NCBI GenBank assembly: GCA_008632985.1
Contig: QPGO01000041.1
Span: 310,001 to 374,000, forward strand
From: Psammoneis japonica
Taxonomy: Eukaryota
DNA: 64,000 nucleotides
Direction: 5' to 3'
The translations under genes and the position numbers were made by a program. Position 1 is the stretch's first letter. The number at the start of each line of letters is the position of its first letter. Below are positions 3,700 through 31,600 of the stretch, in pieces. The notes under the pieces were generated by a model, which was not told where the DNA came from, did not search any database, and saw only the letters and a list, made by a program, of their open reading frames with translations.

Positions 3700-6600
3700 A
3701 TGGTGATGCACCTTCTGGTGCATGGATTCAACTGGATCCAATCATGAAAAGAACATCGAAAACTTGACAACTCATTTTTGCTTGCGTCAAGTCAATGACC
3801 TCCGCTTGCTTTGGTTTCTTGGCAACCTGCCCTGCTTGGACATCAATGCTCACAGGATCTGGTGCCTTCTTGTGCTTGTTTCTCACCTGGGCACCAATCT
3901 CCTTTGGAAAAAGCTCCATGAGTTCCTTGAACGAGTGCTCTCGTCGTCTTTGTGTGCTCTTTCAATTGCTGCAGCCTCGTTCTTGCTGGTGGCACAACAA
4001 TTGTCACTCAAGCTCAATGAACTGCCAAACCCACCACACTCGGATCAACCACACCTGCCTCCTGTGCTGCAGTTGCATGAAAGGGAAGAGAGCGATGAAA
4101 CATTTTGCTTGAGCTTCGTGATTGTTTTGTGGCGCCAGTTTCCTCTGCCGCCCGGCTGGCAGCCACTCCCAGCGATGTTGCCGGACACAATGAGAGGATG
4201 CAATTGCACATCAAGGTTCAACCAATCCTTCTTGGGGACTTTGTTGTCAAAAGTGCTCATGCACAGGCTCTTTCACAAGAACGCAGCAGAGTTGAAATCT
4301 CAGAAGATTTCTTGATGTCCTCCATTGCTTCGTCTTGACTCTTTCTCAGTTTGGCATCTGACACAGCCAAAATTTCCTGAGGTTCATCAACTTTTGTGTC
4401 TGTTGATGCTGTGTCTGAAGAAGAAGATGATGATGAAGAAGATGCAACCTTGGTGTCCTTGGCATCCCCACATCGGAGCCGTTCTTGAGTGATGCTGGTT
4501 CTTTCTCAGTCTCGCTTCCTGCATTTGACACATCCTTGCCTGTGGGACAAATCATGGTGCTGTCTTGGAGAGGCAAAATCTGATCTTTCCTCTCCACATT
4601 CACCACTCAAATGTTTTTTATTTGCTGTTTGCATCCTCTCAATTGTCAGTTGATCATGTGTGCAAAATTCTGTGTGGTGTTTTTAAAAAAGCTCATCCAG
4701 TCACAAAGGGCTTGTGACATTTCAGTTTTTTTGTTTGGCACTGTGAACTCTCAGGAGCACAGAATGTAAACACATGACTCTCATCATTGTGCTCCATTGT
4801 TCCTTGCTTTCCATCTTTTCACTTTGCTTTTGAGAAAAAGTCACAACCTCTGCTGCATCTTGGCAAATCTCAAAAATGCCTTTTTGCTCAACCCTGCCTT
4901 CTCAATCCAACCCCCCCCCCCAATCACCGAAAACAAGTCAAAAAATTTCCACACAACACAAAAAATTTGACCAAGATTGGCCATCTGCCAGCTTTGATTG
5001 TGTGTCCATGCATGAGAGGAGCCAAGGTTTTGACATGTTGTTTTGCTGAGTTTCTCTCAAATGTTCTTTTCCACAGAACTCAACTCACAAAAATGCTGCA
5101 CCCCCTCAACTGTCACAACTTGTTCCCCCCAATCATGACTTGAAGCTGCCACACTGTGTTGATTGTCAACCACACTTCCTTTGCAGTGTCCCCACTTGCT
5201 GCAGCATGCTTCAAGTGGAATGACACTCCAAAATGAAAGAGCCCGGGTCTTTCAGACAAAACAAAAACAGAAGAAAATGGCTGGGCAGCGCAGGAGATGC
5301 TGAAACAAAAAAGCCAGTTTCAAGTGCTGCTGCGCCTTTGCCCAGCAACACCAGTGCCAGCTGACCCTCACTTCTGGCACACCCCACCAGGGGTGCGGCA
5401 GAAGAAAATCTCTCACACAATCAGCCAGTGGTCAGTGCGCCACTTTGTGGCGATGCACGCTGGACACCAGGGACAACTTTTGTTGAAACAAATTTGTGCA
5501 CAAGAGCAAGGAGGTCATTGCTTTCTTTTAGAGAGGACACAAAGCACCCAAGCCACCACAGCAAAGAATGATCACATTGACCCCACTCCCAGCGCGAACC
5601 ATGCAGTGGTTCACCGCGCGAAATCACGAATGCGCGCGATTCCTGCCCCGAACCATCAAGTGGTTCGCGGCAAGCCAAAAACGAACCGACAGACGATGGG
5701 CAAAAGTGCAAAAGATGATGAGACATCTACAATGACATCACATCAGATGATGCAGCAACATCTGTTTGACAACATGTGTGCTTTGTTTCAGTGGTTTACT
5801 GTGTTCTTAAACTCATCCGCACTGCTGCCGTCTTGTTCATCGTGAGCCTCATTTTTCTGGTTCAATTTTGCATTCGACCCTCTGGCACAAATTGCCACGC
5901 ACATTTCTACGCTCGTCCTCCCGAACCACCTCATGGTTCACCAATTCTGCGGGGCTCCCGGTGCTTGTCTACGCAGCAAACCGCTCAATGGTTCGACATT
6001 TTTTTCTGGTGCTGCCCCACAGCTGTTTCTACGGGGTGAGAAAATCACCGACAACGACCATGACGGTGATTTGACGGCGACCGAGCTCCACACACGAGTG
6101 GCCGCTGACAACACAATGCATTGACAACAATGGCTTTTTGCCTCTGTTAAAAGGTTGCATCTGTGTGGGTGCTGCTTCATTGTGTCAGTTGCGAGTTTTA
6201 CGCTGCGCAAGTTGCAAACCACTGAGTGGTTCGATTTTTTGCCCGAGTGGGGTTAAGAAAATGATTCAAAATTGGCACAAACTCTGGGAGAAAACCTTGC
6301 TTCCAAGGATGGGCCTTGTCTTCAACAAAGGCGCTGACTGAGCCTCGCATTTGCGCGCACCAGAACAAAAGCAAACAGCTCAGAGCAGTGAGGTTTTGGC
6401 AGGTTGGCAAGCAGAAGAAGGGATGTTCAGGACTTGCAGGTGCAAAACAGGGAGCCTTGGCAATGTGACCAGAAGGACATTGGAAGAAACATTGTTCTCA
6501 CATGGAATTGAAGTGGGGCAGGGGGGTGGGGTGGTGTCTTGAAAACAGCTGAGAGCTCTCAAGTGATCAATGGCAAAGGGGATGAGGCAGATGCCGGTGT

Positions 6601-9600
6601 CATTCAGGGCGGATGTGAGGGTTGCTTCATGCTGGGTTTCTCGTGTGCTCCGCCCCCCCCTGCCGCAGTGTTGGAAGACTGTTGACATCATCAACACAAC
6701 ACGTTGCCCGGCACGGCAACGCCACAGCATTTTGGTGCACGATGCCGCACACTGGGCTCAGGCCCAATGCGCAGTGTGCAAATTGGGGTTTTTCTGTGAG
6801 CAGAATGCGCGGTGCATTGCGCAGAGTGTGCACTGCGTAGAATGCATGTGGTGCAGTGCCAGGATCAGTGCCAAGGTGTTTCATTGCTTGTCTGGCCGGT
6901 GACAACACGCAATTTGCTGCTTCTCGATTGCATTTTACATCGCTGCTGCTGCATCACATTGCTGGCACATCACATTGCTGCTGCATCGCATTGATCACAT
7001 TGCTGCCACACTGCATTGCCACCAAATCACACCGCCCTTTTGCCAAGGAGAAAAAATGAAACAACAAAATTGCACCACGCAAGCACACTTGAGCTGAGAA
7101 AGAGCCATCTTGACTCCAGGCTTCTCTTGTGGCACCACTGATTGTCTTGATTGACATCACATCCCTTGTGCAAACGAGAAAAGAGACGCAACAAAATGGC
7201 ATCATGCAATGTGTTTTGCTGAACTGTCTCAACAACGCACTTGAGCTGAGAAAAAACTCGCTCGACGGAAGCACTGGAAAGTTGCGCGAGGACCACAAGA
7301 CGCGCCGCTTCAGACATGGCTAAATGCGTCTCGTGGTGAACACGCCACCATCCCCAAACCCTCCTTGCAACCTCTGCATCATCTTCTTTCCAAGCCAGTC
7401 GGTCCATGTGTCCGTCAAGGTTGCTTCTGTCATGCTCCTCTCCAGCTTCTTCCTGCTTTTTCAATGCAAGCGTGGTGTCACACTCATCCGATCCTTCAAG
7501 AGTGGTCCAATGCTCATCTTCCATTTCATCAATCTTCTCCTTGTACACCTTCAGCTCCTCTTTGAAATTCGTGATGAATGCAGGGCGGTTGAACTCTGGG
7601 AATTCGAAATGCGCCAACTTGTCAACCAACATCTCCATGTGAGGCATCGACTTGCCCTTCATCTTTAAAGGATTGAGGACGGATGCACCATGGCATGCTT
7701 GACAAATGTTGCAGTGTGGGCCTGAAGGAGAAAGGAACTTGTCTCGGCAATGCTCAAAGCCTGGAGCGACACACTGTTTCCCGTGATTTTCAAAGTCATC
7801 GCAGTCAACAGTTTCCTCTCCTTCCAATCAGAAAAAGACTTCTCTGCAACCTTGAGAGCTTCCTCGGCTTCCTTTACAGTTGCCTTGGCTTGTTGCTGTG
7901 CATCCCGTGCCGCTTGCAGCTCGGGGGGAAACCCGGTTGTTTGCGAGTTCATTGCAATTCCGACCGATGCGCTGACGCTTTGAGGCCCGTTCACCAACAT
8001 TTTCTCTGATGGGCACCGCCTCTTCAACCAGTAAATCGGCCTCTGACAATGCATCAGTTGCATCAACAAGTTTGGTTCTTGCTTGCTCTGCATCTGCAAG
8101 GAAGGGTTGCTGCAACGCACTCATGGCCTCGACGGCCTCAGGCACGGCGGCATTAAGGTTTTGCCAAGTCATTTCTCCAACAATGTTCTCGCCAACACCA
8201 ATCTTGTTGCCAAGTCTTGTAACAACAGTGTGCCCAACAAACACAAGGGGGGCATCACCCTCCGACACATGACAAGCGCGACAAAGGGGGTCGCCACCAT
8301 CAATGACTGCACCAAGTTCAACTGTCGCTCTGGCAAACTGGACCGGATCATTTGACATTTCACTCACCTTCTCTGAACTCTTCTCGGAATGCTTCTTTTC
8401 CTGCAGATGGTGACACAACCTTTAAGGCGACTGAGGCCAATGCCAATGCACTGTGCCGCTTGCTCGAAAAATGGACACCACCGGGCCCCTCCACTCTTGA
8501 TTGCTCGCTGGCCAAACATTTCACTAAAAACCGATCACGCTTTGCACAAGCTGCACTTCACCACACCCGCAAAAGCACCAAGCAACGCTTTTCCCGTGGG
8601 GCATTCAAACTTGCCGCTGGCGTCATTTGTTCCATGGGCGGTGCAAGGCACCTCAACCGGCGTGCCTTTTGTTTCATCCTTGACAATGGCGATTGCTTTG
8701 CCATTGGCACCAGCATGATCCATCATGGAAGCACGCCAATCGATCGCATCCAAGCTGCACTGTTTCAACACTTTCACAATTTCTCCAGCTGGCTGGTCTG
8801 CATTCAATGAGGTGTCACACAGCTTGCACTCAAGCAGCAACTCCCGAATGTTCCAATCCTTGTCAATGAATTGAACCTTTATGACGAGCACTTCTGCAAA
8901 GAATGGGGATCCATCAACGGTTGCGGAGAACTGAGGGTGGGCTTCTTTGATCTGCTTTTGGATCCAAGCTTGGCACGTCTTGAGCACAGGGGGCATCAAA
9001 TCTGTAAGACCCCTGACGCCGCCGATGCTAAGTCCCTCACCGGCAATTCCCTCCAAGACATCTTGGATTTCATTCAGTGCATTGAATGCCATGTTGCCTT
9101 TGCAGAACATGTCCAAAATCCTGATTCTGAATTTTGTCAGCCTTTCGTCTGGCTCCCGCAAATCGTTCTCCTTCTGACAGAGTCGCACTTGCTCGCACCT
9201 CTTGTTTTCATGCTCTTCATCTGCCAGTTTCTTCTTTTTCTTGTCGCTGTGAGACTTTGAAGCAATGTGACGGCACAAATTCCTCCATGCAACCTGCTCA
9301 TTGTTGCAACACTCACAGAAAACAAGCCCTTCATGCCACGTGATTGGTTCGCTGGTGCTGCTTGGAGAGGGACATTTGACACTGCCCTCAGTAAAACCTG
9401 CACTCACAAACTTCTTGCAGCTGTCCAATGTTCTAGTCTCCTTCTTGCAGTCCGCATCTCCCTTGGCCTTGCTCTTGGATGAATTTGAGGCTTTGCGAAT
9501 CTTTCTCTCACGCATGCTTTTGTGCTCTGGAGCCTCTTGAAAGTCGCCATCCTCAGACAAACGGGCGTCTTGCTCCTTTTCTTCACTGGAGGAGGGGTCG

Positions 9601-10270
9601 TCGACGTTGATGAACTCGGGTGCGGGTGCCACACTGCTTGCTGCACCCTTTTTCCTTGCTGCTTCGGATCCATCGATCGCCTTCACTTCAGACACCACTG
9701 GTTCGGCCAACTTCATCAAACGAAGATGCTTGCATGCGAGCTCGTGGTTTCCCACGTTCTTTTCGCGCTCGCTCCTTCCCTTGGTAGACGCGTGCACATG
9801 GCGCGCCGATTTCACCAGTTTCATCACATCTTGGCGCTTTGCTTCGGTTTCTTCCTTGCTCTCCTGCAACACCTTCACAACAGCTGCGTCATGCGCATCT
9901 GGATCACAATCAGAACAAAATTTGTCGATCTCTTGATTTATCCCATTCCGCTTCCGCTCGAGATCGCACCAGTTCTCAAGCTTTCCAACAGATTTGAGCA
10001 GGTTTTCGAAGCGCTCACAATCCTCGCCAAAGTTCTTCTCAGACGTCTTGAACAAAGAAGCAATTGACTTCATGGCTGTCGGTTTCTTGGCTGGTGGTTG
10101 CATGGCCGCTCCTTTCTTCACCGCACATTTCTTTTTTGTAGCTTCTTTGGCAGTGGTTTTCTCAGCGGCTTTCTTTGAAGTCGCCAACGCTTTTTTTGGC
10201 TTTTCTGCCTCTGATTTCTTCTTCTTCTTCCCACTGAACATGACGACTGCTGCGACAATGAGCAAGCATC
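3700..10270. other. TpA-depleted hypermutated repeat domain 1
   Basis: Very few TA dinucleotides and excess TG/CA; translations are rich in Cys/His and nearly Tyr-free; TA returns at about 10277 and left of about 3695. Confidence 0.9.
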
Positions 10271-10508
10271 TCTTGTGTAAACAGATGGCACCGTACAGGA
10301 ACGGCAACAGCGCTTCAGATGTCGACTCGCTGTGCTGTTTGATGCCTCCTTTGTATGTCATGGTCTAGTGCGCAGAGTCGTCAATTGGATTGTCGTGCGT
10401 CTTGCCGTCGTCCAGTACCAGGCACACGTAGAATTGTACGCACTGCGCAAACTGCCAAAAAAAGGTGCACATTTTGGGGTTTGGGAGTGCGCATTGGGCC
10501 AGGGCCTA
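6753..10508 (-). mobile_element. Full-length hAT-superfamily DNA transposon, decayed
   Basis: Perfect 8-bp TSD CCGCACAC (6745-6752 and 10509-10516); 21-bp TIRs TGGGCTCAGGCCCAATGCGCA (6753-6773) vs revcomp of 10488-10508 TAGGCCCTGGCCCAATGCGCA (18/21); internal hAT transposase. Confidence 0.9.
7100..10240 (-). pseudogene. hAT transposase pseudogene
   Basis: Zn finger CECC...RHIASKSH; first catalytic region FSATVDGS; MMDHAGAN...PCTAH (D...CxxH); C-terminal dimerisation motif LSSASVERVFS; broken by a TGA stop and frameshifts. Confidence 0.85.
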
Positions 10509-10700
10509 CCGCACACGCACCCGCGCATTGAGCATCAACGCCACAACAACAACGCACAACAGCAACAAGAACGGTCGCGGACGGCGACATTTGTGTGTTG
10601 TTGACATTGGTTCAAACGGCGCATCTTGAATCAAAAGGCCCGTGTAACATTCTCTTGCATAGTTTGTTGTTGGCGAAAACATACAGATAACAGCAGCAGC

Positions 10701-11615
10701 ATGACGGTTCTTTCGAAGAACAGAAACACCTTGTGCGCTGCTGCTGCAGCGCCGCCACCACTCTCGGTGGACTTGTATTCGTCTTCGATGCTCTTGGCAA
10801 CATCGTCTTCACGACAAAAGACGCAAGTCGCACGTATTTTGGAAAATGACGATCGCCCTCTGTTGAGCGATCGTCAAAAGCCTCTGTCACACTTTTATCC
10901 CAGGGCTCTTGTGGTAAGCACGGTGCGAGTCGTGATGAAGCAGGTTGCCGAGTCGTTGGCACACTTTTTATCCGATAAGTTGGAAAAGGAAACCAATGTA
11001 GATAAGCTAGTCGATAAAGGCGAATTGACTGTTGACCAAGCCGACAAGCAGGTGGCCGATTGGGAAGACGAGCAATGGGAAATCCGCACCAAGGCGTTCC
11101 CGAGCAAGGCGTGGACAGCCCTGTGGAAATACCATGTCGTGACAATCTTGTGTCGTGTCTACGAGGGCATGACGGATGTGTGGCTTAAAGACGATGTAGC
11201 GTTGGACAAGCTGACACAGGACGTGTTCAAGAGCGGCATTCGCACCTCGAAGCAAAAAGAGGAACAGCCGCGAGTTGTGATGCGAGAAATGTTTGTAACC
11301 TGTCTCTGGGCCAATGCGTTTTTGTATTTGGCGGACTTTTCGCTTCACGAAATTATCATTAGTGTTTCGTGGTATCGTATTCAAAAACGTCGTCGTTTGA
11401 CCAAGGACAAAAAGTTGGAGGATATCGATGAGGACGAGGCGAACAAAGAAAAGGGACTGGCATTCAAGTCTGCTTCGCTGGCTGTATCTCGGTTTGTTGG
11501 ATGGGTGGCGGCCTCAGCCGGTGGAGCTGTCGGAACGATTGTTTATCCTGGATGGGGAACTCTGGTGGGTGTCAACATGGGCGACAGCATGGTCGCGTCT
11601 CTCTTTGAAATGTAA
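10701..11615 (+). CDS. Hypothetical membrane protein with C-terminal glycine zipper
   Basis: Long ORF, first ATG at 10701, ending ...ASAGGAVGTIVYPGWGTLVGVNMGD; start codon uncertain. Confidence 0.75.
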   Translation: MTVLSKNRNTLCAAAAAPPPLSVDLYSSSMLLATSSSRQKTQVARILENDDRPLLSDRQKPLSHFYPRALVVSTVRVVMKQVAESLAHFLSDKLEKETNVDKLVDKGELTVDQADKQVADWEDEQWEIRTKAFPSKAWTALWKYHVVTILCRVYEGMTDVWLKDDVALDKLTQDVFKSGIRTSKQKEEQPRVVMREMFVTCLWANAFLYLADFSLHEIIISVSWYRIQKRRRLTKDKKLEDIDEDEANKEKGLAFKSASLAVSRFVGWVAASAGGAVGTIVYPGWGTLVGVNMGDSMVASLFEM

Positions 11616-12085
11616 AAAAGGGCGCATTGGCGTTTACTAAGGAATAAATTTTAACTTCTGTGAAACGCTGGATAAGAAGTACCGAAACTAAGTAGTGGTG
11701 GCCATAAACAGCTGCCATATAAGTTAGGGCTAGTCGATTTTCTCTAGCGTCCATATGCTACATAGGGAGGCCTTCCGCTCTTTACTAGTAGCTTAGAGTT
11801 TGAAGTAGACTCTACTAACTCTATCTCTACTCTAGCTACTAGAGTACAGTAGAGAGTGTTTGCATGCCAAGAGAGAGGAGCGAGCTCAGTACCGGTACGT
11901 CATCGACTGCTTTTGTCTATTCTACGTATATCCACGTATCTGTCTAGTATGCAAAGATCCAGATTTTGATTTTCATCGTTGTTCTTCGAAGCCACCGCAC
12001 CTCTGTTGTCTGTTGCTCTTGCTGGTGAAAAAGCTCCAGCTGTTGCTATCATACTGAATGCAGTACCATTTATCAACAACAAACA

Positions 12086-13063: not shown

Positions 13064-13104
13064 GTTGACTTGTGCAATAAAAGCACCAACAGATACATAC
13101 AATA

Positions 13105-14255: not shown

Positions 14256-15646
14256 CTAGGGAGAACGTTTCTCATCGGTGAATCGTCCAGGACAGCGCGT
14301 CACCAACGCTTTGTCTACGTTTACGATACAATCAAGATCCATCATTACCTGGCAGTAGGAGCCCTTTCGTTCGCTGGTAGTCTGTAGTCCATATTGATTG
14401 CACGCGTTCTGAAATAGTGTCGCCCGATATCCCACTGGGCCCTTGAGACAGAAAAAACTACCCGACCAGTCGCCACCACAATACTCGGCGCCATCAACCC
14501 CCACGTATTTGCGACTCATGCTGCATTCGGCCTCAATATCATTTGCAAAGCATTGGTCATCATATCCATCGTAGGAATAGCTTTCGTAGTCTTGGGATGA
14601 GGCACCTTGGATCGGACACTCATCCGGCCCAACAAGTGTCCAATGGCGCAGTACATCTTTCTCTCCCCAGATACCGCAAAAACTAAGCTCATCCTTTTCA
14701 AAACTTTCGCACGTTGTGTAGTAGCAACAGCGATTGTTCCACTGCTGAATTTGTTCTCTTTTACACGTTCCGGCACACCAAGATTCGACATTTCCGGCAA
14801 AGGTGACTAGTTCACTCAGCCGGGCTTCCTTACCATCCAGTGGATTCACAATCTGTCCAAACACGGTTTCGTAGAAGTTCCAAACAAATTCATTGCCCAA
14901 TTCTGTGCCCGCAAATGCCAAACCAACCAAAGTGCTGTGCTGTTCCAAGATACTTTCCGCCGTTGGATTCTTTAGCCAAGCGATTTCAAAAAAATCCGTG
15001 TAGCATAGTTCTCCGCAGTCTTCATAGCATAGATCGATCGCATAATTTGGATATACCATGCTCTTTTCCAAGTTGTTCTGTCAGCCAGTACTTCCGAAAG
15101 GACGTCGGAGATATCTTTGCCAACACCTTTTCCGAAATGAAAAGCAACGCCATGACCAATCAACTCGTAATCTTCTCGGGCTTTATTCTCGTCTTCAATG
15201 CTCTCCGCCTGTTCGCAAGCCGCCACGGCCAAATCAGCCGCTTGGTCAATCAAATCATGGGCATCCGCGATTTTCTTCTTGATGGCACCATTGACGCGAT
15301 TGGCGGCAATCTCTGTAGCAGTGTAGAGCGCAACGTGTTGCCACCTCCCATCTCCAATCTTGACGAGAGCACCATCCTTGATGAGATTCTTAGCCCCAGC
15401 TCTGTAAAATGAAAGCGCATTCCCCACTTCAATCATGATTTTGAAATAGGAATTGCTTTTGATGAGGTCGAGACGCATTTGGTCGCATCGAGCGTTGCGG
15501 CCGTTGGCGTTAGTGGCAGCGGCGGCTGTCTTCCTTTCCAAATTCCGCAGCAACTGTTCCACACTTTCTTCTTTGTAGTCTTGGGCCAAGCTCAAACCCA
15601 TAGACACCAACAGAAGCACCAATGCAAGTGTGACTTTCGTTATCAT
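14256..15646 (-). CDS. Secreted protein with Cys-rich C-terminal half; frame break near 15075
   Basis: Signal-peptide ORF 14972-15646 overlaps Cys-rich ORF 14256-15071; joining them needs one indel or an intron. Confidence 0.6.
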
Positions 15647-15949
15647 AATGCCTTAACACCGATACCTCTTGCTAACGTCGTTCGAAAAAATATGAGCCAC
15701 TTTGGAGCCGCAGAGCGCAGAGCCCCCCGACAAGTTCCAAAGTCGGGTCCCACGACTGGAATTGGCGGATACTCTCATCGTACAAAAAGTACTGAAAACT
15801 CTGTAGGGCAGCTCGCGTGAATGAAACATGCGCCACGTCAGATCAACTGTCTGTCTGGCGTCGTGCGCGAGTGCTTCTCACAGTTGCTTCGAGGATCTCA
15901 TACATGTGGTCCTGCAGTGTGTCTTATAATAAATGCTGGACTTCAGTTT

Positions 15950-16520
15950 AGCAGCACACTCTCAAGAGTCCTCAGTGCATGGAGCAAGAGATGAGGATGG
16001 TGCGAGAAAAAAGCTCTCCAAGAGCCTCGGAGGTGATGACCCCGGCTCTTGTTGCTTTGTTGCTCTTTTGCCTCCTTCGCCCTTGCCCACTGGGTGGGCA
16101 GCAGGAGTGGGACAAGCAGAATTTTGCAGGCAGATAGTGAAGATGTGCTTGTGAGTGTTTGGGGCAGGGTGCTGAGGGGCACTTTAAAAATGGACAGCGT
16201 GCTTGCTTGAAGAGCGCAAAATGTCAAGGTCAAGAGCTGTCAAAAAAAAATGCTTCAGATCACGAACACATCCTCAACCACTGGGACCTTGCCTTTTTTC
16301 TTCAAGGCCTTGATCTGCTCCCTTGCATTGCTGGCCTTCGTCAACTCATGATGAAGTCTTCTGTCATCTCGTGTCTCTCATTCCCTCTGGCCGCTGGTGG
16401 ACCGACGAGCCGACCCCCGCCGCGGCGCCGCGCCCGCGACGCGCGCAAAAAATTGCGCACCTGACGTCAGCGTCGCGCGTGAGACAAGAGGAACATTCGA
16501 ATTGGACAAATGGTCGAAAT
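15950..16520. other. Small TpA-depleted relic island between two genes
   Basis: Almost no TA across about 570 bp; TG/CA-rich left part and CG-rich right end. Confidence 0.65.
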
Positions 16521-16622
16521 GGCGGCCGTTAGTAGTTGTCTGGTAGAGCCGTAGAGACGGATGATACTTTGACAGTGCAGATAAGAAAGCAAGAGAAAGC
16601 AAAAGTCTCCTACTTCGTTTCG

Positions 16623-19600: not shown

Positions 19601-19818
19601 TTTCTGCAATGCTTCACGCACGTCATGGCGGGTTCATGCTGCATGAAGCGTACGCCAATGAACGGATGGGTGATTTCATGCTTGCGCGTGGACGAGCTGA
19701 GCAGGGGCAGCAGCGCATGCAGGAAGCCCGGAGACTGTATTCGGATTGGGGCTCGTCAGCAAAAGTGCGACACCTGGAGGCCAAGCACAGTTTTCTCCAA
19801 GCACCAGGCTCTTCATAA
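16623..19818 (+). CDS. STAND/AAA_16-type ATPase with helical-repeat C-terminus (intron-containing; apparent frameshift near 17350)
   Basis: Walker A ISGPAGIGKT; Walker B LLDDLQWAD; TRTGGNFYF; FCHDSVQEAAY; C-terminal YSDWGSSAKV; GT-AG introns at about 16927-16995 and 18934-19014. Confidence 0.85.
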
Positions 19819-20099
19819 TGCCCTCAAAGCTTGCAGCATTTTGTCTTACCATGATGCTAAGTTGCAAACGAACGGAAGAATGAATTATCTGCTGGAATGT
19901 TCGAGATACATTGAAGTGCAGGTGGCATCTCTGGAGCACCGGGCTGCTGTTCCAAGCCACATCTACCGGCCGTGTAGTCAAAACTCCTGGAGCACCGGAC
20001 TCCTGTTCCAAGCTGCTTCTATTGGCCATGTGGCCAACATGTGAAGACTGGCAGAAATGATAGCCCTACAAGTCACCTGGCTTCTTTAAAAGTTAAGGC

Positions 20100-20451
20100 T
20101 GTCAAACCTAAAAATGATGCCGTGCAGCAGTATCCCTTGGCCTGCATTGATGCAACGACAATGGATACCGCCGACTTGCGAACATTTCAGATTCACTATA
20201 CAGATCGCACTGGAGAAAACTACTTTTGCTGTCCGACAAAACATGCATGGTACTATTTTCCACAAACGACGCACGACGAAGCTCTACTTTTGACACAATG
20301 GGATTCGCTTGGAGACGTTGCGAATGGCAAGAACGTGGACACGACATTGAGCACAATGACTGTCCATTCGGCCTTGATGGATTCAACGTCACCACCAAAT
20401 GCACCAGCGCGACAGAGTATTGAAGTTCGCTGTGTCGTCACATGGGACTAA
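20100..20451 (+). pseudogene. 5'-truncated CmcJ/NvfI/AsaB-like oxidoreductase fragment
   Basis: YPLACIDA, HAWYYFPQ, EALLL.QWDS, VHSA and RQSIEVR motifs; no N-terminal half or obvious upstream exon. Confidence 0.65.
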
Positions 20452-20593
20452 GAGTTGTTGTAAAGTACGATAGCCGGTTTGTAGCGTAGCTATCAATCGC
20501 TCGTTGTGTGTACTGTGCTTCATCGGAGGCTCTCCATAACACAAACTCCTTTTCTAAAGGTCCACATCATGATAATGGGAGACCCCCGCCTTA

Positions 20594-21694
20594 CTAGAGT
20601 GAATGCCCGAGTTCCTGTGCGACTGCAGATTCAAAAAAGCGCTTCACGAACTCGTCACAGTCGGACTCGACAAGAAGCTGGTGCCACTTTTTGTTTGCCT
20701 GACAATCATTCCATAATGGTCGTAGTGCTACATGTTTGCGTTTTCCAATACGCGCACTTGTAACTCGTGAAAGGCCACCACAATCAGGATACCGAGTTGC
20801 AGAAAAGTTGTTTCGGAGACAATCTTGAATGCGCTTGTTGACCAAGACACGAGTGCATCCCTTTGGCACCATGTTTGGAATACCACAAAAGGGTGCCACT
20901 TGAAGCGAGGTACCAAACACAAGCACCAAGTCAAATCCATGCGTGTCGTTGAGAGGGAAATCGTGGTTGCAACAATCGTACACGCGACGGGGGATATCGT
21001 CCCCGTACAGGACGAGATTTCCGGTTCGCATGGATCCATGACATTCCACAACGAGGTCTCGTGGAATATTCAAACTCGGATGCAAGTGAAGACCGTCCAC
21101 ATTTTGTGTATAGAGTCGCTTGAGCCAACCTCTTTCGTGCAACCAAGCGCAAAAGCGATGCGTGAGCGTTGGCTCCAAATTTGCAAAATCAGCTTGAACA
21201 CGAGGAAGCATAATTTCGTTCCATACGTCTGGATGTTGCACAGCAAAGTTCCTTGATAGAATCCATTCTGGATTATCCATTACTTGCGGAAATTGACGAC
21301 CAAAGTCTCGTCGCAACGCTTCAAAGAGTCCGCCCTGGGAACGAAAATCAGGCACGCCTGCTGCAACACTGACACCAGCACCAGTACACACTAAAATGTT
21401 TTGGAATTTGCCATTGGCCATTTTTTCAAATAGTTCCAAAAGTTCTTCACTGGCTAGTTCTGAATCGTTGTTTTCATTCGAAGAATCCAGTTGAATGTAT
21501 GTAGCGTGTTTTCTTCCCGTGGTCGAGACTGATGGCGTTTGAGCACCGCTTGAATCTGTTGGTATATTCAATTGAAACGCACGGTTTCGGTGTTTCCGGC
21601 CAGTCTTGTGTTCTGTAAGTGCCTTTGAACTCTGTAGATCCAAGCAGCAAACGTCACACCAAAAGGGAGGCGTTGCTGTCGTCGTTGTTGTCAT
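20594..21694 (-). CDS. Sirtuin (Sir2 family) with N-terminal C2H2 (matrin/U1-type) zinc finger
   Basis: WCDVCC...EHKTGRKH finger; TGAGVSVAAGVPDFRS, YTQNVDGLH, ECHGS and GTSLQVAPF motifs. Confidence 0.9.
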   Translation of the reverse strand: MTTTTTATPPFWCDVCCLDLQSSKALTEHKTGRKHRNRAFQLNIPTDSSGAQTPSVSTTGRKHATYIQLDSSNENNDSELASEELLELFEKMANGKFQNILVCTGAGVSVAAGVPDFRSQGGLFEALRRDFGRQFPQVMDNPEWILSRNFAVQHPDVWNEIMLPRVQADFANLEPTLTHRFCAWLHERGWLKRLYTQNVDGLHLHPSLNIPRDLVVECHGSMRTGNLVLYGDDIPRRVYDCCNHDFPLNDTHGFDLVLVFGTSLQVAPFCGIPNMVPKGCTRVLVNKRIQDCLRNNFSATRYPDCGGLSRVTSARIGKRKHVALRPLWNDCQANKKWHQLLVESDCDEFVKRFFESAVAQELGHSL

Positions 21695-22260
21695 TGGAAG
21701 GAGTTTCGGTTCGTTCGAACTTTCTAATCAGAGTGAATTATGAAAAGTTGGTGTATGAAAACCGAAACAGGGGTGCCGCAAAAGAAAACACAATGAACAT
21801 TCATTCAGCTCTAACCTTACGGTACGCTACGTTCCTAGTCGTGTGGTGAGGAGTTCAAGTGAGTTGGCGTTTTCAGATTTCAGACGTGCATAAGCGTCCG
21901 ACCGTCGACGGTAGATTCTTCACTGTACCCTACGACACGCGGTACAATGCTGCACCTCTGTTCCATGCAGACCTAGCTAGGACCTCGGTCTATTCCCATG
22001 GGTGTGTCCCTTGACTCTAAATCAACGAACAATGAAAGTAACGGCTCGTATTTTACAGTAGGCATGATTGATTTATCACAGGCACTGGGGCGGGCATTTC
22101 ATCGGATGGGAATGACCCTCTCACCGACAACAGGACGAATTGTGTGCTCGAGCATCTGGCTCAATTTCCACACTCGATTTGGCCTTTTCCCTTTCAATGT
22201 CTTTCTATTTGTTGGTCGCAAATCATGAACTTCTCAGGTGCAACCAACTTGCCGGCTTAA

Positions 22261-22658
22261 GGGGGGTCATTTGCTGCTTTTTTTAGCTCGAATTCAACCG
22301 AGTGGCTCATGATCATTTGTGTGATTTTTCTTGAATTTCACCGTGCTTCACCGTGGTGAAAACATCAAGCCACAAGTCAGTGACGGAGGTGGTCCATCTG
22401 CCAACTCTCATTTGTTTTATGTTTGTTGTGTGTCAAAGGTCACATGTGCATCAAATGTTTGTGGATGGACCACTGCGTTTTGGAGCTGTGTGCCGACATT
22501 GCCGTCATCATCGTGCTTCGATCACGGTGCCTGATGTTCTCGTTTTCGTGCGCAATCGGGTGTGAATTTAAATGAATTTTGCATTCAAAAACAAACACTG
22601 CAAACATCCTTGTTCAAATGCCATGGCAATTCCAGGACAAATGCAGGGATGACCCCCC
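22261..22658. mobile_element. Non-autonomous MITE with TTAA TSD and GG termini (Kolobok-like)
   Basis: TTAA|GGGGGGTCAT ... ATGACCCCCC|TTGA; it interrupts the left TIR of the Zator-like element exactly at TTAA. Confidence 0.7.
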
Positions 22659-24069
22659 TTGAAATTGATGCTGGGTTTCGCGTGACAGTCTGGCAGGGTT
22701 CGGACGGCCGTGGCAAACAGCAGAATGCGTAGAATGTGCACCAGATCCTGCATGCACAAGCAAACATGCACTGAGACATTGTGCAACAACACACAGAAGA
22801 TGCACTAAAACCCATGCAGCTTCAGCATCTTGACAGAAAAGGGCGATGTCTTTGACATTTTCTCTCCTTTTTCCCAACACTCAATGCACAATTTGATGCT
22901 CGAGATGATGTTGTTGCGTTTCATTTTTTGTTGTTTGCGTTGATCTGAATGACAGCAGCAACATGGTGACAGGCTTGGATGGCTCCATGATGCAAGCATT
23001 TGTGTGGGTGAGACGCAGCAAACCACACTTGTCAACGGGACATCACCGCCATTTCAAAACTTCTTGTTGCTGGAAGTTTGGAGATTTGATCCACAGAGCA
23101 CTGTCGTCTCACAGTGACACAGGCACCTTGACGAGAGATGCGCTCACTGCATTGTTGTGTGGACCACACACAATGTGGTGTTGCAAATCTTCAGAAGAAA
23201 AAGTGAACAAGAAGATCAGCATTTGTTCCAAGGGCTCCTGTGCAGCAATGCTCGCTTCCAATTTCCTGCATTTGTCAGCGGCATTTGACAGCACAGAGCA
23301 GCCTGCGGTGGTCTCAAGTGACACAGCAATGTCAAGATTTATGCAGGCACAAAGGGGCCTGTGAATGCCAGAGAAGTGTTCCATGAAAGAAAGTGAGAAA
23401 AGCAGCTGCCCTTTGACCATGCTCTTTTTAACTTTTTGGTTGGAGACCATGAAAGGAGCAATCTCGGGGTTTCTGTGGGTAGTCTGGTCAAGCTGATGGA
23501 CCTCTCCAAGGTTGTCAGGGAGGTGTTGCAGAATCCACACAAGAAAATTGGGAGGGGCCAACTGCCCGGATGGTTCCGCCACTCATTGGAGCGGCATGAC
23601 AAGCACGACGGCACTCGAGCTGACCAGAAGAGCCTCGAAAACCTTGCACTGAAACTGTCTTCAGCTGTTGCTGGCTCCACATTTCCAGCCACAGACCAAT
23701 GGAAGGAATGTTGCAAGGATGTTGACATGCTGGCATTGTTGTTGAACAATGACCGTGTTGAAGCAATGAAGCAAGATGCAGGAAGGGCTCAAGAGAATCA
23801 AACGAGATGCAGCAACAATGCATTCAATTGACTGGCTGACAAACAAACACACAAAGCAGCCTCAGAATCCACCGCCCCAATGTGCTGCAGTTCTCTTCTT
23901 GCCCAGCTGCATGACAAGGATTGCTGCAAACATGTGACAATCACATCTGAGGACACTGACCTGTGGAGCCCACCTTGGTCATCTCCTGAATCGGACGAAG
24001 CAGGTCACAAACGTTGAGAGTGCTTTTGGAACAACTTGGCCCTTCCCATTCCCACAAGGCCTTTTCAAC

Positions 24070-26390
24070 ATGCAGTTGGCGGCAGGGAATCAAGCCTCCT
24101 TGTTGTTTGGAAAATGCCACCACTGCAAGAAACCCGAGACCCAACCAAAGAGCTGCGTTGCAAGACAAGGATCGTGGAGGAGGAGCTCCCCAAGTGCACC
24201 AGTGGAAGCAAAGCAATGGACCTTGATCAAGGACAGGTTCAGTTTTGTCCTTGGTGGCAGCATGCCATCTGGGCTGCTCAGTGCCATGTGGCGTGTGATG
24301 GTCGGGGACAGCAGCAAGGCTCAGCACCCCAAGCAAGAAGAACAGTGCACACTTTGGCATTGCATTGCCAATGGTGACACAGAACTGTGGCCAGATCTGT
24401 GCACTGCAATCAATGCAGCTCCTCCAAAGCATGAAAAGCATTGCAAAGTGGCAAAACAAGTGATTGAAGACATGAGTGGTGCCGTTCCTTTTTGTCATGG
24501 CACACAAAGAGCACTCACAGCAACCAATGCAGACTTGGTGTCCATGCCGTCTCTCCACCAAAAGACAGTCCAGAGCATGAAGGCCAGCAATGATGAGTTG
24601 ATCAAATCAGCACCAATCCCAAGCCCACAGTTGCTTGTCATTTCTCTGTGCCCGCAGCACACCTCCAGAGAAATTGCCAAGCATTGCACATGCCGGTTTG
24701 AGTTGCGATGTGGCATCCAGAGTGCAACAATGTGCAAAGACAACCCCGATGTGCACCGCAGTCACAAATTGAACCAGTGCACCAACAGTTTCATCATTGA
24801 GACAAACAACATGGTTCACGATGAAGTTCCTGGATTGATCCCTGTCAGCAACAACTGTCTTGCCTTTTCAAAGGGGTGCACGAAGGTGAGCATTGACAAC
24901 AAGGCTGCTGTGCCAATTGGTGAACCAGGCAGGCCTGTGAGAACTGGAGTGTGCACGATGTCCGCTTCCATTGTGCCCACATCCACTGCCACCCAAGCAA
25001 ACTCCCCATGCCATGATTTCCACAGGGCAAACCTGAGGCCTTCCTGCTCACTTGTGGTGTCTGCTCCAGAGAAGGCGGACAATTCTTGGTGCTGTGGTGT
25101 TGTTGCGGTGTCCCTCAAGGATGGGGCCACTCAGGTGTCATCTCCCATGCAACACACAGTTGAATTTATTTTGCAAATGCAGAGCCTCATGGAGAAGGAT
25201 GATGAAATCCATTCTTTGTCTGGGAACAAAGGACACGCCGAGCTGTTGTCTCTTCCACATGCATTTGTCCTCCGCTCAGATGGAGGCAGTGACAGAAATC
25301 CCAAGAATGCATCTGTGCAAATGGCGATGGTGCACACATTTCCACATCTCAATCTTGACATCCTCATCTGCCTGATTGCTGCTGCCAATGTTTCCCATGC
25401 AAACGAGGTTGAGGGTGTGATGCCAGTGGCAAATCTCGCTTTGCAAAATCAAGCATTTGCCAGCACTCCGATGACAGACGACATGGAAAAGTTGTTCAAA
25501 GATGCAAATTCAGGGAAGGCCGTGCGTGATTGCATCGCTGGCTTGTCAACAGAATGCAAGCGGCAAGAGGCTGTGGAGGCATGGAGGAGCACTGTTGAAG
25601 ATGCAAGAAACATGGTTGGCATGAGGTTGTCAAACATTGGTCACAATGACAAGCAAGTGTCCATGTTTGAACCTGGAACAGACACGTTGATTGACAATGC
25701 TTGCACTCACCTTAAAGAAAAGATTGATCTGACTGTGATCCAGAAAAGACTGCTTGGGCTGAAGTTAAGAAGAACAACAAGGACATGATGAAGTTCCTCA
25801 AGACGCACGTGACTCAAGAACCACACCATCTTGAGATCAAGAAGTGCGGCAAACCTTCATGCACAGCTTGTCAGGTCGCACGCATGTCACCATCAGTGTG
25901 GACTGCGTTGTCGAGTTGCCCCTGCCTCATTCCACTGCCGACGCCCAAACAAGATAGCAGAAAAGGTGAAGTCCGCTGCAGGGACTGTGACAAAGCAAAG
26001 AACAAGCAGACAGATGAGTCACACCAGCCAAGCTTCAAGCCACCATCAAATGAACAACTGCTGCAGATGGCAAAGGAACATGACAAAAGTGTGAGTGAGA
26101 AAACTGAAAAGTCAGCCAATGACAAAACTCTTTGGAGCAAAGATTGTGCAAGACCATTTGTCACTTGCCAAAACTGCAGCATGCTGTGGGCAGTTTTTGC
26201 TCGACCATCAATGGGTGGCAACTGGTGCAAGGCACTTGAAGCTTTGAAAGGCATGTTGTCTGAACTGTCGCACAAGTGCAATTGCAGTGACAGGCTCTTT
26301 GGGTTGGAAGAAGACCCAGTGCCACATCCACGTCTTTTGCAGGAGGCTGTGATGAGAGGTGATGGCAGAAAGACACGGCCCATGTGCTGA
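24070..26390 (+). pseudogene. Zator-like transposase pseudogene
   Basis: SIDNKAAVPIGEPG (DDKAxVPIG-type), HDF...LRPS, SDGGSDRNP (DGGPD-type), NEVE..MP..NLALQ motifs and C-terminal Cys cluster KKCGKPSCTAC. Confidence 0.75.
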
Positions 26391-28359
26391 GCATGTTTGA
26401 GCAACGGCAAACAAGCCATGTTGTGTGGATGTCACAACAAATCCGGCAGCGCTGGGGAATGTAAACGTGGTGGTGTGCATGCTGCTGATCCGCGCCAAGG
26501 CAAAAAACTCAAAATCCATTTTACCGCTGCCTCGCTGCCGCCCACACCAACACCGACCACAGTGGACCCACGTTCCCCAGCACCCACAAAGGGTGGCAGG
26601 GACAATTCAAACACTGTCAAACGTTGTCAGAAAGACAATGCCATCAACACATTGTCCGAAGGCAATGCTGTTGGCACATCATCAGAAAGAGGCTGTTTGT
26701 TTTAAGTCAGAATGGCAACCGACCTGATGCTTGTTGCATGGCAACCACAGTTGCTGTGCCTCAAAGAATGGACAAACCCAGCCACACCACTTGGGAGACA
26801 CCAAAACAAACACTGCAGAAAAACCAAACACGTGTCCATCTCCGAAGATGACATGCTTGAAGAGATGTGAGAGAGATTCCTGGGATGAAAAACACCCAAG
26901 AAAGTCCAACACGGACCCCAACGAAGGAAAAGGAAATGATGATCGGAATTGTCAGATGAAATTTCCGTCATGCGTAGAATTGCACAGAAATTGTGTGCTG
27001 AAGTTGCAACATCGAAGAGCATGAAGAAGCAACACCGAGACTTGGAACTGCGAACCACTTGGAAGACTTGTGACAACCCACTTTGGAACACTGTAGAACA
27101 TCCATCATGAATTGCAGTGTGTTGGAAAGAAAACTCAAAGGAAGTACGTTGGTGAGAAGAACAAGAGGATAAACCTCACACGGTCGTCGACTCGAAATTC
27201 TGGCCAAACGCGTAGAATTGCACATGAAATTTGCACTGAAGTGGCTGACTTGAAAATTGCTGAATCATGTAGAATTTAACGTAGAAAACACACTGACATC
27301 GGGAAAGAAATGCAAAGAGATGAGACACCATGGCGGCACCGCTCCCCCGGACGTAGACACAACAGAGCATCCCCTCCGATGCCTTTTGGTTTCTCTGTCA
27401 TTGGCGCAACTGCCTGATGTCCCAAAGTGCCAAGGAGGTTGGCATGCCACCACACTCTCACACAGGACAATCCTGCGGGTGCTTGCGCAGAATTGTGCTG
27501 ATCCGTGCCGAGGCAGAGGAGCAATCCAAGACATCAGCAGAGAATCGCGACAATGCTGCCAACAACAAAGGCAACCAGAACAACAAGCTCTGGGGGAGGG
27601 AGTTGCGGCACCAAAATTGTGGCTCTTTTCATGTGGTGACTTGTGAAGTTTGCCTTTTCTGCCAAACAACGCATCATTGTTTGGCAACCATTGGACTTAA
27701 AGAGGAAGGGCACATGGATGTCAACAGAAATGGGGAACAAACATGCGGGGCCGCAATCTATGCCATGTGTGCAACCGCCATTGGGGGAGTTGAAGGTGGT
27801 TCCACAAGGTGCCGTAAACACCTGTCCTTGTGGCAGTGGACTGCTCCATTGAACAAGAGCTGTCTCCTGCAGTTCTCAGTTGGTTGTGCAACAGAAAAAC
27901 ATTGGTGATGTGTGTCATTGCCAGTGTGCACATTCGCAGACCAAGGACAGAAGGGGCCATTCTCACCTTGTCAAGCCGCTGTCTCAACCACCATCCCAAT
28001 GCCAGCCAGAGTGCTGGCAGTTGTCCCATCAAAGTGCCACCAACGGCCGTTGACACACATCAAAAACCCATGGCAGAGTTGCAGAACACAGAACAGCGTC
28101 AGCAGAAATGAGCGGATTGTTGCCCATGTTGTCTTGCCCTTGTCCTTGCACACTGTGTCCTGCAAGAGGGTGTGTGGACCTAAATTTCAGCGCCAGGTGC
28201 TGCGTGTCCTTCAAATCCCCTGCGCAGACTCTGGCGTCAATTCTGCATGTCTCCCAATGTGTGGCAGGCAGGCAGTGTTTCATTCCACCATGTCGCGCAA
28301 AACCCCGCATCAACTTTAGGCCGGTTGGCTGCTGGCGGTTGTCTGCACAAGAAGCAGCG

Positions 28360-28662
28360 TGATGTCATGTGATGTTCCTGGCCAGGGCAATCCTGGTGCT
28401 GATTCTGCAAGACATCACATTAAATGTCATGTTTTTGGGAGAAAAATGGCGTGCCGGCAATTGATTCGTGGCCCCTGACTGTGACGAACTCATTTCTCAC
28501 GTGTGCAGAAGCCTTCAAATGCTTCCTCTGATTGCTTTTCCCTTGTGTCAACCACGGCCCCCCATGCCCTGCAGTGTTTGATGCTTTGCTGTCAACGGCA
28601 AAACAATTGAGGATCATTGGAGAACAATGGTGGCATTTGGGATTGCAGTGTCACGTGGATGT
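28360..28662 (+). repeat. Truncated copy of the long TIR family; forms a large inverted repeat with 28695-29005
   Basis: Colinear with 31551-31898 and reverse-complementary to 28695-29005. Confidence 0.85.
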
Positions 28663-31600
28663 GGGGTCATCCACACAAGTGTCACATTTTGGCTCAGGCA
28701 AATGTGACATGCTGCAACCCCAAACACCACCATTGTTTTCCAATGATCCTCAGTTGTTTTGCTGTTGACAGCAAAGTGTTGAACACTGCAGGGCACAGGG
28801 GCACATGGTTGACACAAGGGAAAAGCAATCGGAAGAAGCATTGTTTGAAGGCTTCTGCATGCATGAGAAATGAGTTTGTCACAGTCAGGGGCCACAAATC
28901 AATTGCCTGCACACCATTTTTTGTGCAAAAACATGATGTCTCATGTGACATCTCGTAGAATCAGCACCAGGATTGCCACAGCCAGGAATGTCACATGTGA
29001 TGTCATGCTGCTTGCGCATGAAAAAAAAACTTTGCTTGCCTCTCCGGGACATTTCGGCATGGCATCAAGAAACACCACCCTTGCTTCAAGGCGGTTTGTG
29101 TCATCACACAGTGCGGTGCCAGCTGGAGTTTGGCTTGCCACTCTTCGCTGCTGCTGCCGCACCGGCAGAGGTGAAACAGTTTCAACAGTTTTTTTTTCAT
29201 TTTTGTTGAAAGTTTCAACAGATTTCTTGTTGAAACTTGAAGTTTCAACAGTTTTTTGACGTCTGTTGAGCTTTTTAATGTCAGATGCTCGTGTGCCCAA
29301 ACAGATGCTAAACATGGTGGGCAACAAGCAGTTTCTCAACGGATGTGCAACGGTCATTCTAAGTTTGAAAATGTCCATTGCACACAAAATTGCTGCGCAG
29401 GATCTGGCATCTCTTGCGCTTGCATGAGCGACTTCTTCCAATGCACTTTCAACAGACTTGAGGCAACTTCCAGCAGGCAAGAAGACAGACAACATGAGAG
29501 GAGTTTGCTCCGTTGTGCTCCCCGCAGGGCCCGCAATGCACAAAATGTGCGAGTTTGATGGCAGATGATTCTGCGTGGCATGATCACTGGAATGACAGTG
29601 CCCCCCTTGCCCCCAAAGCAGCCCACTCTCAATGCTTCATCATTCGTCATGCAGCACCACCAAGGAACAACAAGCATGCTGCTTCCAGTGCCAATGAGGA
29701 AAGAACAATGCTGCACAGCATCAGATGCCACTGGCGCTGACAGCTGCCACCTGCAGGGATGACAGACTGAATGCAGGAGAAAAATCAGAAGCAGAACCAT
29801 CAACAGGCATGCAGCCATTGGCAGCAGAATTGTCATCCAGCATGATGATGGAGCACAGCACCAAAGAGGAAGACGATGATGACGTGATGATGGAGCACTC
29901 AATCTCACATGAAGCACCGCCACTGCCCTCTCCTGCAAAAGTCAAAGCTGCCTTGATCTTGGGTAAATCATTTTTTGGACTTGGAAGTGTGATTGCAGCC
30001 TTGGGCTTGCTGGCTTGCAATCCGTTTGCCTTTGTGTTGTGTCAAGAAGTTGCAGCGCGTGTCTTGCTGCTTGCCACCGCTGTGGCAGCTGCAACTCTGA
30101 GAACGCATCGTCCATGTCAGCATCATCCTCTGATTCCAACACTGTTTCAAAATCCGTTGCATTTCTCATTGCTGGGTCTGGTCATTTTTGCCAATCAAGC
30201 TGGAGGTGCACGCATGCTTGCTGGTTCTGTGGTGTGTGATGCTGTTTCGCGGTCAGGAAACCATTCAAAAACACATTTCTTTTTGCTGTTGTTCCATCAA
30301 TGCAGGCATTGTTGGGATCAAATTAGCAGGACCAAGATTGCCACTGTGGTTTGGCAGCCCTCTCAACCCATCGTGACAGTTGCCACATGTTTGGCCTTGA
30401 AGAAGGAACCCTTTGTCTGGTTGCACTGCTCTCATCACAGGAGTGAGATGATGTGACAAGCAACAGCAACAATGACAGCAAAGCAACTGCAAACACTGGC
30501 TGTGTGGCCCATGCTGTGGGCAATCTCTTGTTTTTTGTCAACTGCTTGGGTGCATCTCTTTGCGTCATTCTCTCCAAGAAAGTTTTGCAGCTGCATCCAC
30601 CTCTTGCAGTGAAAGCATTGTTGCACAATGTGGCTGCTACATTCATGGCTCTTGCTGCATTCCTCTTCTCCACATTGGCACCTTTGATGGAATTTACATG
30701 TCTGGAATGCACTTCGACTTGGAACATTCCATCCAGAGTCTTCTTTGCTCTTGCACACTTCATTTTGCTTGGTTCGTGTGCTGCCTGTGTCATTGTGACT
30801 TGGGTCAATCAGCATGCCATGGGCACACTTGTTGTGGGATTCACGGTCCTCCAACCTGTCACGGTGGCTTTGTTCACTGCAACCATGCTGGCCATTGATC
30901 TTCACTCTGCTTGCAACAAGGGAGTGATGCCGTGTCTCGATCCTCCTGCTTTGAGCTCCGGCTTGGGCATGTTGGGTGTCTTTGCAGGACTTCATTTGGT
31001 CATTGTCACAGAGCCATCCAGTGAACAGGCTCATTGTCATGAAGCCACAACAGCAAAAACCAACAACAAAGAGGAGGTGGTGTTGAAGAATTTTGAAGAT
31101 GACGAGGACAACTTTGAGATTGAAGCTGTTGCAACAACTTGAGGCCGTCCCAAGCAAAACTGGAACAGGGTTCACAAGAGTCTTGCAGCCAAGCAGCTCT
31201 CCCTCCAATTGAGAGATTCACAAATGAATGCCCCTGATTGTCAAACAAAGCACAGCAACTGCAGAGTGGAAGCCTGCTCTTCATTCTTGCACTCAAGTGC
31301 CCTTCCACCTGAATCAGGAGAACCCACTGGCTGGCAGGTGACAAGGAGAACAAAGTCAAACCCCCAGAGAAGCTGCAATTTTTGAACCATGACACAGCTG
31401 CTCAGTGCCATGCCTTGGGGCATTTCTGAAAAAGCAGAAGGACCCCGCCGGCAGCCCAAGGTGGACAATGATTTTGTTGTTGGTTGGGGAAACCACCTCT
31501 CCACTGGAGCAGAGCTAGAGCAGAGCCAGGTGGTCATCTGTGCAAGTGGCGTGACATCATGTGTGACATTCCTGGCTGCAGCAATCCTGGTGCAGCACTG

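Follow-up and report, generated by a model that had tools for sequence, protein, structure and literature searches.

Persistence of the word CGTAGAA in TA-depleted transposon DNA of Psammoneis japonica

Short repeats scattered within both ends of the element are a defining feature of the hAT superfamily and are bound by the zinc finger of the transposase, as described in PMC4890040. Here, we analyse a heptamer, CGTAGAA, which persists in TA-depleted transposon DNA within a 64,000-nt stretch of Psammoneis japonica DNA (contig QPGO01000041.1, positions 310,001-374,000, assembly GCA_008632985.1; hereafter the window). With the subterminal repeats of Ac/Ds, Tol2 and Tgf2 it shares being a short word within ~50-500 bases of the ends, in either orientation, which adjoins short terminal inverted repeats and an 8-base target duplication. 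It differs from them in that each hAT end of the window carries one intact copy together with look-alikes, and in that the word is also present in other multi-copy segments, beside a gene unlike hAT. The comparison is one of description and not of repeat sequence, and CGTAGAA is put forward as a predicted binding site only.

The mutational background also has described counterparts. TpA-restricted hypermutation of integrated viral DNA has been reported in Bigelowiella natans, with an ADAT2-like protein as the proposed candidate enzyme (Mettrop et al., bioRxiv 10.64898/2026.01.13.699255). The process resembles what is seen in our window: it is local and domain-wise, and it converts TA into TG or CA while sparing the neighbouring genes. 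It differs by the organism and by the CpG decay, which is superimposed in our window only. In the searched text of the preprint we found no analysis of flanking bases and no report of a surviving motif. Literature searches on TpA depletion in diatom transposable elements found nothing related, and a paper retrieved for the heptamer together with transposon binding contained it only inside a primer. Repeat-induced point mutation of ascomycete fungi changes C to T at CpA, creating TA. As a transition mutagenesis that targets repeats, is specific for one dinucleotide and can be recognised by its context, it is comparable, although it works in the opposite direction, since TA is destroyed in our window. 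Most likely, the CGTAGAA motif adds one more example to a kind of feature already known, exposed by an unusual mutational background; to the specific reading that (C)GTAGAA(T) is a transposon-borne subterminal repeat, half-protected by its context, we give about an even chance.

Survival of CGTAGAA in the depleted domains

CGTAGAA survives in TA-depleted transposon DNA far above expectation. Three domains of the window are depleted: domain 1 (3800-10270; TA 5.9/kb and CG 37/kb, measured across 3800-10450), domain 2 (22300-34450; TA 4.0/kb, CG 21/kb) and domain 3 (52000-64000; TA 3.2/kb, CG 7.3/kb), the last being the most decayed. Their TA observed/expected ratio is 0.02-0.12, CG is lowered and TG/CA has almost doubled; between the domains the DNA is ordinary, with ratios of 0.41-0.85 for TA and 0.77-1.06 for CG. 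We compared 30.8 kb of depleted DNA, which retains 125 residual TAs, with the 33.2 kb of normal DNA of the same window.

All nine positions given by the original prediction (5905, 6027, 6836, 10427, 22728, 26973, 27211, 27280 and 28954) hold the word. Its marking of 6027 as reverse was correct; the site at 5905 and the variant listed at 5968 lie likewise on the minus strand, which had not been marked. The two CGTAGAC variants (5967-5973 on the minus strand, and 27352) and the decayed forms (CGCAGAA at 5945, minus, and at 27486; TGCAGAA at 28403, minus) are also present. In four further sites the TA is kept and the CG is lost (TGTAGAA at 27092, 27268, 54938 and 59084). Domain 3 contains two TGTAGAA only and no CGTAGAA.

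In the depleted DNA, 9 CGTAGAA were observed against 0.08, 0.11 and 1.25 expected from Markov models of order 1, 2 and 3, respectively. Normal DNA contains six (11920, 14870, 18598, 19108, 39026 and 42478) against 2.7-4.3 expected from the same models. Thus, the excess belongs wholly to the hypermutated DNA, and the suggestion that the word is a host transcription-factor site was not supported. Over the whole window, 15 copies compare with a mean of 1.90 and a maximum of 7 in 100 dinucleotide-preserving shuffles. Consistently, CGTAGAA came out as the top residual-TA 7-mer in a k-mer enrichment (9 depleted versus 6 normal, odds ratio 14, p = 1.8e-6). The sites are also clustered: 7 of the 13 GTAGAA sites have another such site no more than 150 bases away, compared to 1.95 in subsets drawn at random from the 125 residual TAs (P = 0.009). 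With the trinucleotide-model frequency exceeded and clustering present, the predicted persistence of the motif in hypermutated DNA holds.

The count could be inflated by a small number of independent events, through duplicated blocks and young or weakly mutated segments, in which case a general rule on the bases flanking TA (described below) would suffice. Two of the sites (26973 and 27211) belong to copies of a single block, and 10427 lies in a barely depleted zone, where TA is almost normal and four of the five other TAs within 100 bases have the normally erased strand, with a pyrimidine after the A (TAY). Because TA is nearly normal and TAY contexts survive around it, 10427 should not be counted as a survivor of deep depletion; with this zone removed by a stricter boundary, 8 CGTAGAA and 12 GTAGAA remain. 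Counted by locus, the sites reduce to 5, with p of 1e-4 to 3e-3 under the three less generous models and of only 0.025 under the most generous one (expectation 1.62). Apart from 10427, however, all surroundings are deeply depleted, with 0-2 other TAY-strand TAs within 200 bases, and of the 8 other TAs found up to 400 bases from 27213, in the 26975-27354 cluster, 5 are themselves in GTAGA. We regard inflation of the count as a highly improbable explanation.

The flank rule and the place of CGTAGAA in it

The mean survival of TA in depleted DNA, estimated against normal DNA, is 0.078. It varies widely with the immediate neighbours: 0.39 for TTAA, 0.22 for CTAA/TTAG, 0.03 for GTAC, 0.005 for GTAT/ATAC and 0 for ATAT, with residual counts of 0-1 each for ATAT, GTAT and ATAC. 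The general pattern here is that pyrimidine-TA-purine (YTAR) is spared and TAY is erased. This T-A-pyrimidine preference is reminiscent of U33-A34, the setting for tRNA adenosine deaminases. Bases farther out matter as well. Survival is 0.34 for TA+AA (67 depleted versus 183 normal), 0.46 for TA+AAA (30 versus 56) and 0.41 for TA+GAA (21 versus 53), i.e. 4-6 times the average, with almost none for ATA/TAT; TA+GG (0.04), TA+GC (0.07) and TA+GT (0.08) survive poorly. TAAA compared with TAA followed by C, G or T gave an odds ratio of 3.2 (p = 8e-8). As judged from the decay products, TGGAA, which results from a change to TG, is not in excess (114 depleted, 114 normal), and CAGAA, which results from a change to CA, is (118 versus 92); for TA+AA and TA+GAA this identifies the A beside the purine-A-A flank as the protected one. 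The mutator's flank preference extends to at least the second base past the A, which provides a sharper fingerprint for finding the enzyme.

CGTAGAA fits this rule on one strand only. Its motif strand reads T[A]GAA, in the spared T[A]RAA context (survival ~0.41 versus the mean of 0.078), whereas its other strand reads T[A]CG, of the TAY class normally erased; the spared class has a purine after the A on both strands, which places the word outside it. TACG survives in 17 words, 6 of which are outside CGTAGA, from ~138 expected ancestors. Being a G-TA-G word with one TAY strand and yet the commonest surviving 7-mer, CGTAGAA is an exception to the flank rule. Shielding by the neighbouring CG was considered and rejected: TGCG occurs 142 times in depleted DNA, ~60 above the surviving ancestral TGCG, and TACG outside the motif only 6 times.

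The size of the exception was estimated with logistic models in which three flanking bases of each strand add independently, fitted with and without the motif sites. These models predict 0.35-2.0 surviving CGTAGAA against 9 observed, and 0.9-4.0 GTAGAA against 13; under the stricter boundary the figures are 0.5-1.6 against 8 and 1.2-3.4 against 12, respectively. The disfavoured context named in the original prediction thus accounts for the motif strand and fails for the other strand, where the context models fall short of the observed number. In a word-by-word outlier test, whose p-values treat sites as independent, the top places are taken by GTAGAA (p = 2.7e-6; 115 words tested) and CGTAGAA (p = 3.3e-6; 169 words tested); the next outliers are their reverse-complement fragments or words at the expected-count floor of 0.05. 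GTAGAA is found 13 times in depleted and 15 times in normal DNA, compared to 8 and 38 with another base in front (p = 0.015).

An additive model could miss a mutator that reads more than three bases per side, or both strands jointly. GTAGAA would then be a very poor substrate without function, and the clustering would only mirror where the ancestral sequence carried the word. That the flank rule is strong and reaches +2 or +3 (as seen with TAAA) speaks for such pure substrate specificity, as does the lack of enrichment of the word in normal DNA. In addition, a G in front is harmless when the flank is AA: GTAAA (21 versus 46) survives like C/T-TAAA (36 versus 68), so that one flank can protect both strands, an effect missed by the additive model. 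The GAA flank alone is nevertheless insufficient, since CTAGAA (1 versus 13) and ATAGAA (1 versus 10) do not survive and TTAGAA does so moderately (6 versus 15), and without G in front the effect of A at +3 is weak (8 and 38 vs 8 and 96, p = 0.09). Nor does specificity fit the decay of homologous copies (two of three arm copies and one of three blocks, see below), and it does not predict the mirrored positions of the word in the hAT element or its multi-copy setting. On balance, we find this explanation rather unlikely.

Part of the excess goes back to the starting material, in line with a transposon-borne repeat. The word family G-(TA/CA/TG)-GAAT, which joins the intact word and its decay products, is found 27 times in depleted and 9 times in normal DNA, compared to 34 and 47 with A, C or T in front (p = 0.0012). 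Being three times commoner in depleted DNA, it indicates that the transposon DNA began with more copies. When the surplus of decayed words is counted as former motifs, the 13 TA survivors descend from at most ~38 ancestors, which corresponds to a survival rate of 0.34; the context model predicts ~0.10 when fitted without the motif and ~0.28 when fitted with it.

Element ends, multi-copy segments and decay of the word

The hAT element occupies 6753-10508 (3756 bases), with its transposase frames on the minus strand. It is flanked by identical 8-base target-site duplications (CCGCACAC at 6745-6752 and at 10509-10516) and has terminal inverted repeats of 21 bases (6753-6773 and 10488-10508) with 18 of the 21 positions matching. 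One of the mismatches is a TA-to-TG change, TAGGC at one end corresponding to TGGGC at the other. The frame 7027-7827 (minus) matches PF05699, the hAT C-terminal dimerisation domain (E = 1.3e-5, 25.3 bits versus a cut-off of 21.4); the remainder of the gene, too mutated, gave no Pfam match. Duplication, inverted repeats and transposase domain together uphold the hAT assignment. CGTAGAA lies 83 bases inside the left end (6836-6842, plus), with a decayed look-alike GCAGAAT at ~6801, and 75 bases inside the right end (10427-10433, plus), in the zone hardly depleted of TA. Both CGTAGAAT copies of the element are on the plus strand, and the chance of such mirrored distances is ~0.0045.

Two further boxes shared by the hAT ends, GGGGTTT and GCGCAGAG, are plus-oriented at both of them. 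The edge of domain 1 falls within the element and not at its end: the last ~230 bases keep near-normal TA, and in this boundary zone (10271-10520) GTAC and GTAT contexts, erased elsewhere, survive.

To the left of the element, domain 1 contains a minus-strand cluster made of CGTAGAA at 5905-5911, the decayed CGCAGAA (TA to CA) at 5945-5951, the CGTAGAC variant at 5967-5973 and CGTAGAA at 6027-6033. At least four copies of a palindrome, GAACCA-N5-TGGTTC, are interleaved with this cluster between 5595 and 6235, a stretch depleted in TA with a normal CG density.

In domain 2, an element of two long inverted arms (28352-29013) has CGTAGAA in its right arm, 53 bases from the end (28954-28960, plus), and the decayed partner TGCAGAA in its left arm (28403-28409, minus). 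The arms are 81% identical, or 93% by purine/pyrimidine class. A related arm copy at 31539-31935 has lost both TA and CG, the motif place near 31597 reading CATGAAA in motif orientation.

Contigs of the likely source sample on 15001-35000 were used to obtain summed depth as a measure of copy number. Depth is 55-60 over genes and 34-37 over most of domain 2. It rises to 691 and 3581 in the segment 21671-23004, to 1693 and 1396 in the segment 26340-27673, and to 221 at 28341-29007, over the inverted-arm element. The bins holding 22728, the 26973-27352 cluster and 28954 thus have depths of 221-3581, compared to 34-60 elsewhere. As the high-depth bins are exactly those of the domain-2 sites, the word sits in the multi-copy parts.

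The first of these segments has CGTAGAA at 22728-22734 (plus), directly behind a decayed look-alike, in a dimer GCAGAATG-CGTAGAAT (22719-22734). The second holds the main cluster, with six GTAGA words and three homologous blocks of ~50 bases at ~26950, ~27190 and ~27465, all read on the plus strand. CGTAGAA forms the core of block 1 (26973-26979) and of block 2 (27211-27217), which is 81% identical to block 1 over 36 bases; block 3 has CGCAGAA instead (27486-27492), with TA changed to CA and both CGs kept. Outside these cores are TGTAGAA at 27092-27098, where TA is kept and T replaces the C of CG, TGTAGAA at 27268-27274, CGTAGAA at 27280-27286 and the CGTAGAC variant at 27352-27358. TGCGTAGAAT is common to three sites. 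A longer shared motif, CGTAGAAT plus TG-Y-R-CAC, is seen at several sites, but a search with a degenerate pattern was uninformative and the extra matches are within chance. No inverted repeats were found between 22150-22900 and 26300-27800. A metagenome locus (L001) retrieved with a 21-base block pattern was discarded as a chance hit; it is AT-rich, not depleted in TA and without BLAST likeness to the window.

Between the two segments, a long open frame (23938-26390, plus) had been labelled as belonging to a Zator-like element. Its product belongs to a eukaryotic family without annotation, with 14 homologues at 39-49% identity, whose alignment has invariant D, D and E columns; it is possibly a DDE transposase. 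The Zator-like label was not confirmed by Pfam, by Atlas or by the search of solved structures. Pfam gave no match for the frame nor for six homologues, a profile of the 23938-25788 protein had no match among solved structures (its structure model has a mean predicted local distance difference test score, pLDDT, of 51), and the ISAzo13 rows of the Atlas, with scores of 0.75-0.77, do not reach the range considered reliable. The claim that the sites lie near the ends of unrelated elements stands in part. It applies to the hAT element (83 and 75 bases inside) and to the inverted-arm element (53 and 51 bases); the ends of the Zator-like element could not be defined. CGTAGAA occurs in at least four settings, and the proteins of two of them are unlike, the second protein having no likeness to that of hAT.

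Two sites on the minus strand of domain 3 complete the series, both TGTAGAA. The first (54938-54944) stands behind a decayed look-alike (TGCAGAATG-TGTAGAA), in a dimer of the same shape as that at 22719-22734; the second is at 59084-59090. Three dimers of the form GCAGAATG-(C/T)GTAGAA or similar are present in all, at 22719, 54938-54953 and ~6801, each with its first unit decayed.

Decay of homologous copies shows that protection of the motif TA is partial and not absolute. Among the three alignable arm copies, CGTAGAA is kept at 28954 only, two of three having lost both TA and CG, and among the three blocks of 26950-27520 the TA is kept in two. Of seven recognisable decayed copies, three of them backed by alignment, six read CAGAA and one TGAAA; exposure of the TAY strand alone would produce such a bias to CA. 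A single spared strand suffices to make a word long-lived.

These data also bear on a shield over the word. A sequence-specific protein, a host factor or a transposase, could occupy CGTAGAA(T) at silenced ends in chromatin, blocking both the TpA mutator and CpG methylation or deamination, with one factor common to unrelated transposons; in a close variant, lineages would have purged dispensable TAs and kept TA where transposition needs it. Of the 11 GTAGAA sites in domains 1 and 2, 9 indeed retain both target dinucleotides, and the clusters lie in CG-richer pockets (5501-6000 with 28 CG per 500 bases and 27001-27500 with 20, compared to mostly 5-15 in other domain-2 bins). A shield would also account for the excess over context models no less well than selection. 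Such a shield would however be leaky, given the decayed arm copies and blocks. In domain 3, where CG has fallen to 7.3/kb, both GTAGAA sites are preceded by T and not C: TA stays and CG is lost, so that CG is not shielded together with TA and the two dinucleotides are not protected as a unit. In addition, CG retention in the pockets extends beyond the motif, and the word is not enriched in normal DNA. We judge the shield quite improbable. If it were real, the hypermutated DNA would carry an evolutionary footprint of a DNA-binding factor common to unrelated transposons.

The reading that we put first, a subterminal repeat half-protected by context, would explain the survival as follows. (C)GTAGAA(T) would be the core of short repeats located in the subterminal, multi-copy parts of cut-and-paste transposons, and its persistence would have three sources. 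Transposon DNA carried more starting copies than ordinary DNA; and the motif-strand A, in T[A]GAA, is rarely hit by the TpA-to-TpG/CpA mutator, as with T[A]AAA. With the motif-strand A spared, the word decays only via the A of the other strand, which halves its exposure or more. These two sources are read directly from the counts. The third, which would account for the remaining ~3-4-fold excess, may be a constraint at the level of the element: copies keeping the motif would have been mobilised and multiplied, probably because the transposase or another DNA-binding protein needs it. A subterminal repeat under such constraint would be in keeping with the few-fold residual excess, the mirrored hAT positions and the multi-copy setting. 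Here, the residual words indicate a candidate subterminal cis-element of DNA transposons and, more generally, words surviving above the flank rule can point to functional transposon sites without experiment.

Several points weigh against this interpretation. The word is also found beside an element whose protein is unlike that of hAT, which is unexpected for the binding site of one transposase; the multi-copy segments may however be separate small non-autonomous elements, as no ends linking them to the 23938-26390 gene were found. Each hAT end has one intact copy and one or two look-alikes and no dense array, and the two intact copies point in the same direction (plus strand) and are not mirrored. 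The surroundings of the clusters showed no periodic repeat structure, the 119-base spacing of 26973, 27092 and 27211 being unsupported by autocorrelation (z ~2) or by alignment. The number of ancestors comes from word counts in composition-shifted DNA, which makes the 3-4-fold residual rough, and the whole case consists of 8-13 sites at 5-6 loci within one 64-kb window.

Other features of the window

CpG and TA decay are uncoupled among the domains: domain 1 has kept CG (37/kb) at 5.9 TA/kb, and domain 3 has 7.3 CG/kb at 3.2 TA/kb. The losses of CpG and of TA look like separate processes or clocks. Contig depth within 22621-34130 is 34-37 across most of domain 2, compared to 55-60, from the same run, over the genes on either side. 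From this lower depth, the domain-2 block could be present in one haplotype only.

Comparison of the window with itself, in four letters and in purine/pyrimidine coding, yielded four useful pairs of related copies only. In one of them, a normal fragment (19651-20078) has a hypermutated copy at 33419-33858, 75% identical and 90% identical by purine/pyrimidine class. The normal copy has 12 TAs, of which none is kept in the other (4 became TG, 4 CA and 4 other); none is in the motif context. A tandem duplication of ~362 bases in normal DNA (50178-50899; 94% identical) carries CGTAGAC in each copy.

Two intergenic sites of normal DNA, 11908-11926 and 39026-39044 (minus), have a common 13-mer, ATATACGTAGAAT, two sites being too few to weigh. 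One is upstream of a glutathione S-transferase frame and the other is between a Kelch-repeat frame and its divergent neighbour. Finally, a Sir2-family frame with a C2H2-type zinc finger (20594-21727, minus) is located ~600 bases off the edge of domain 2.

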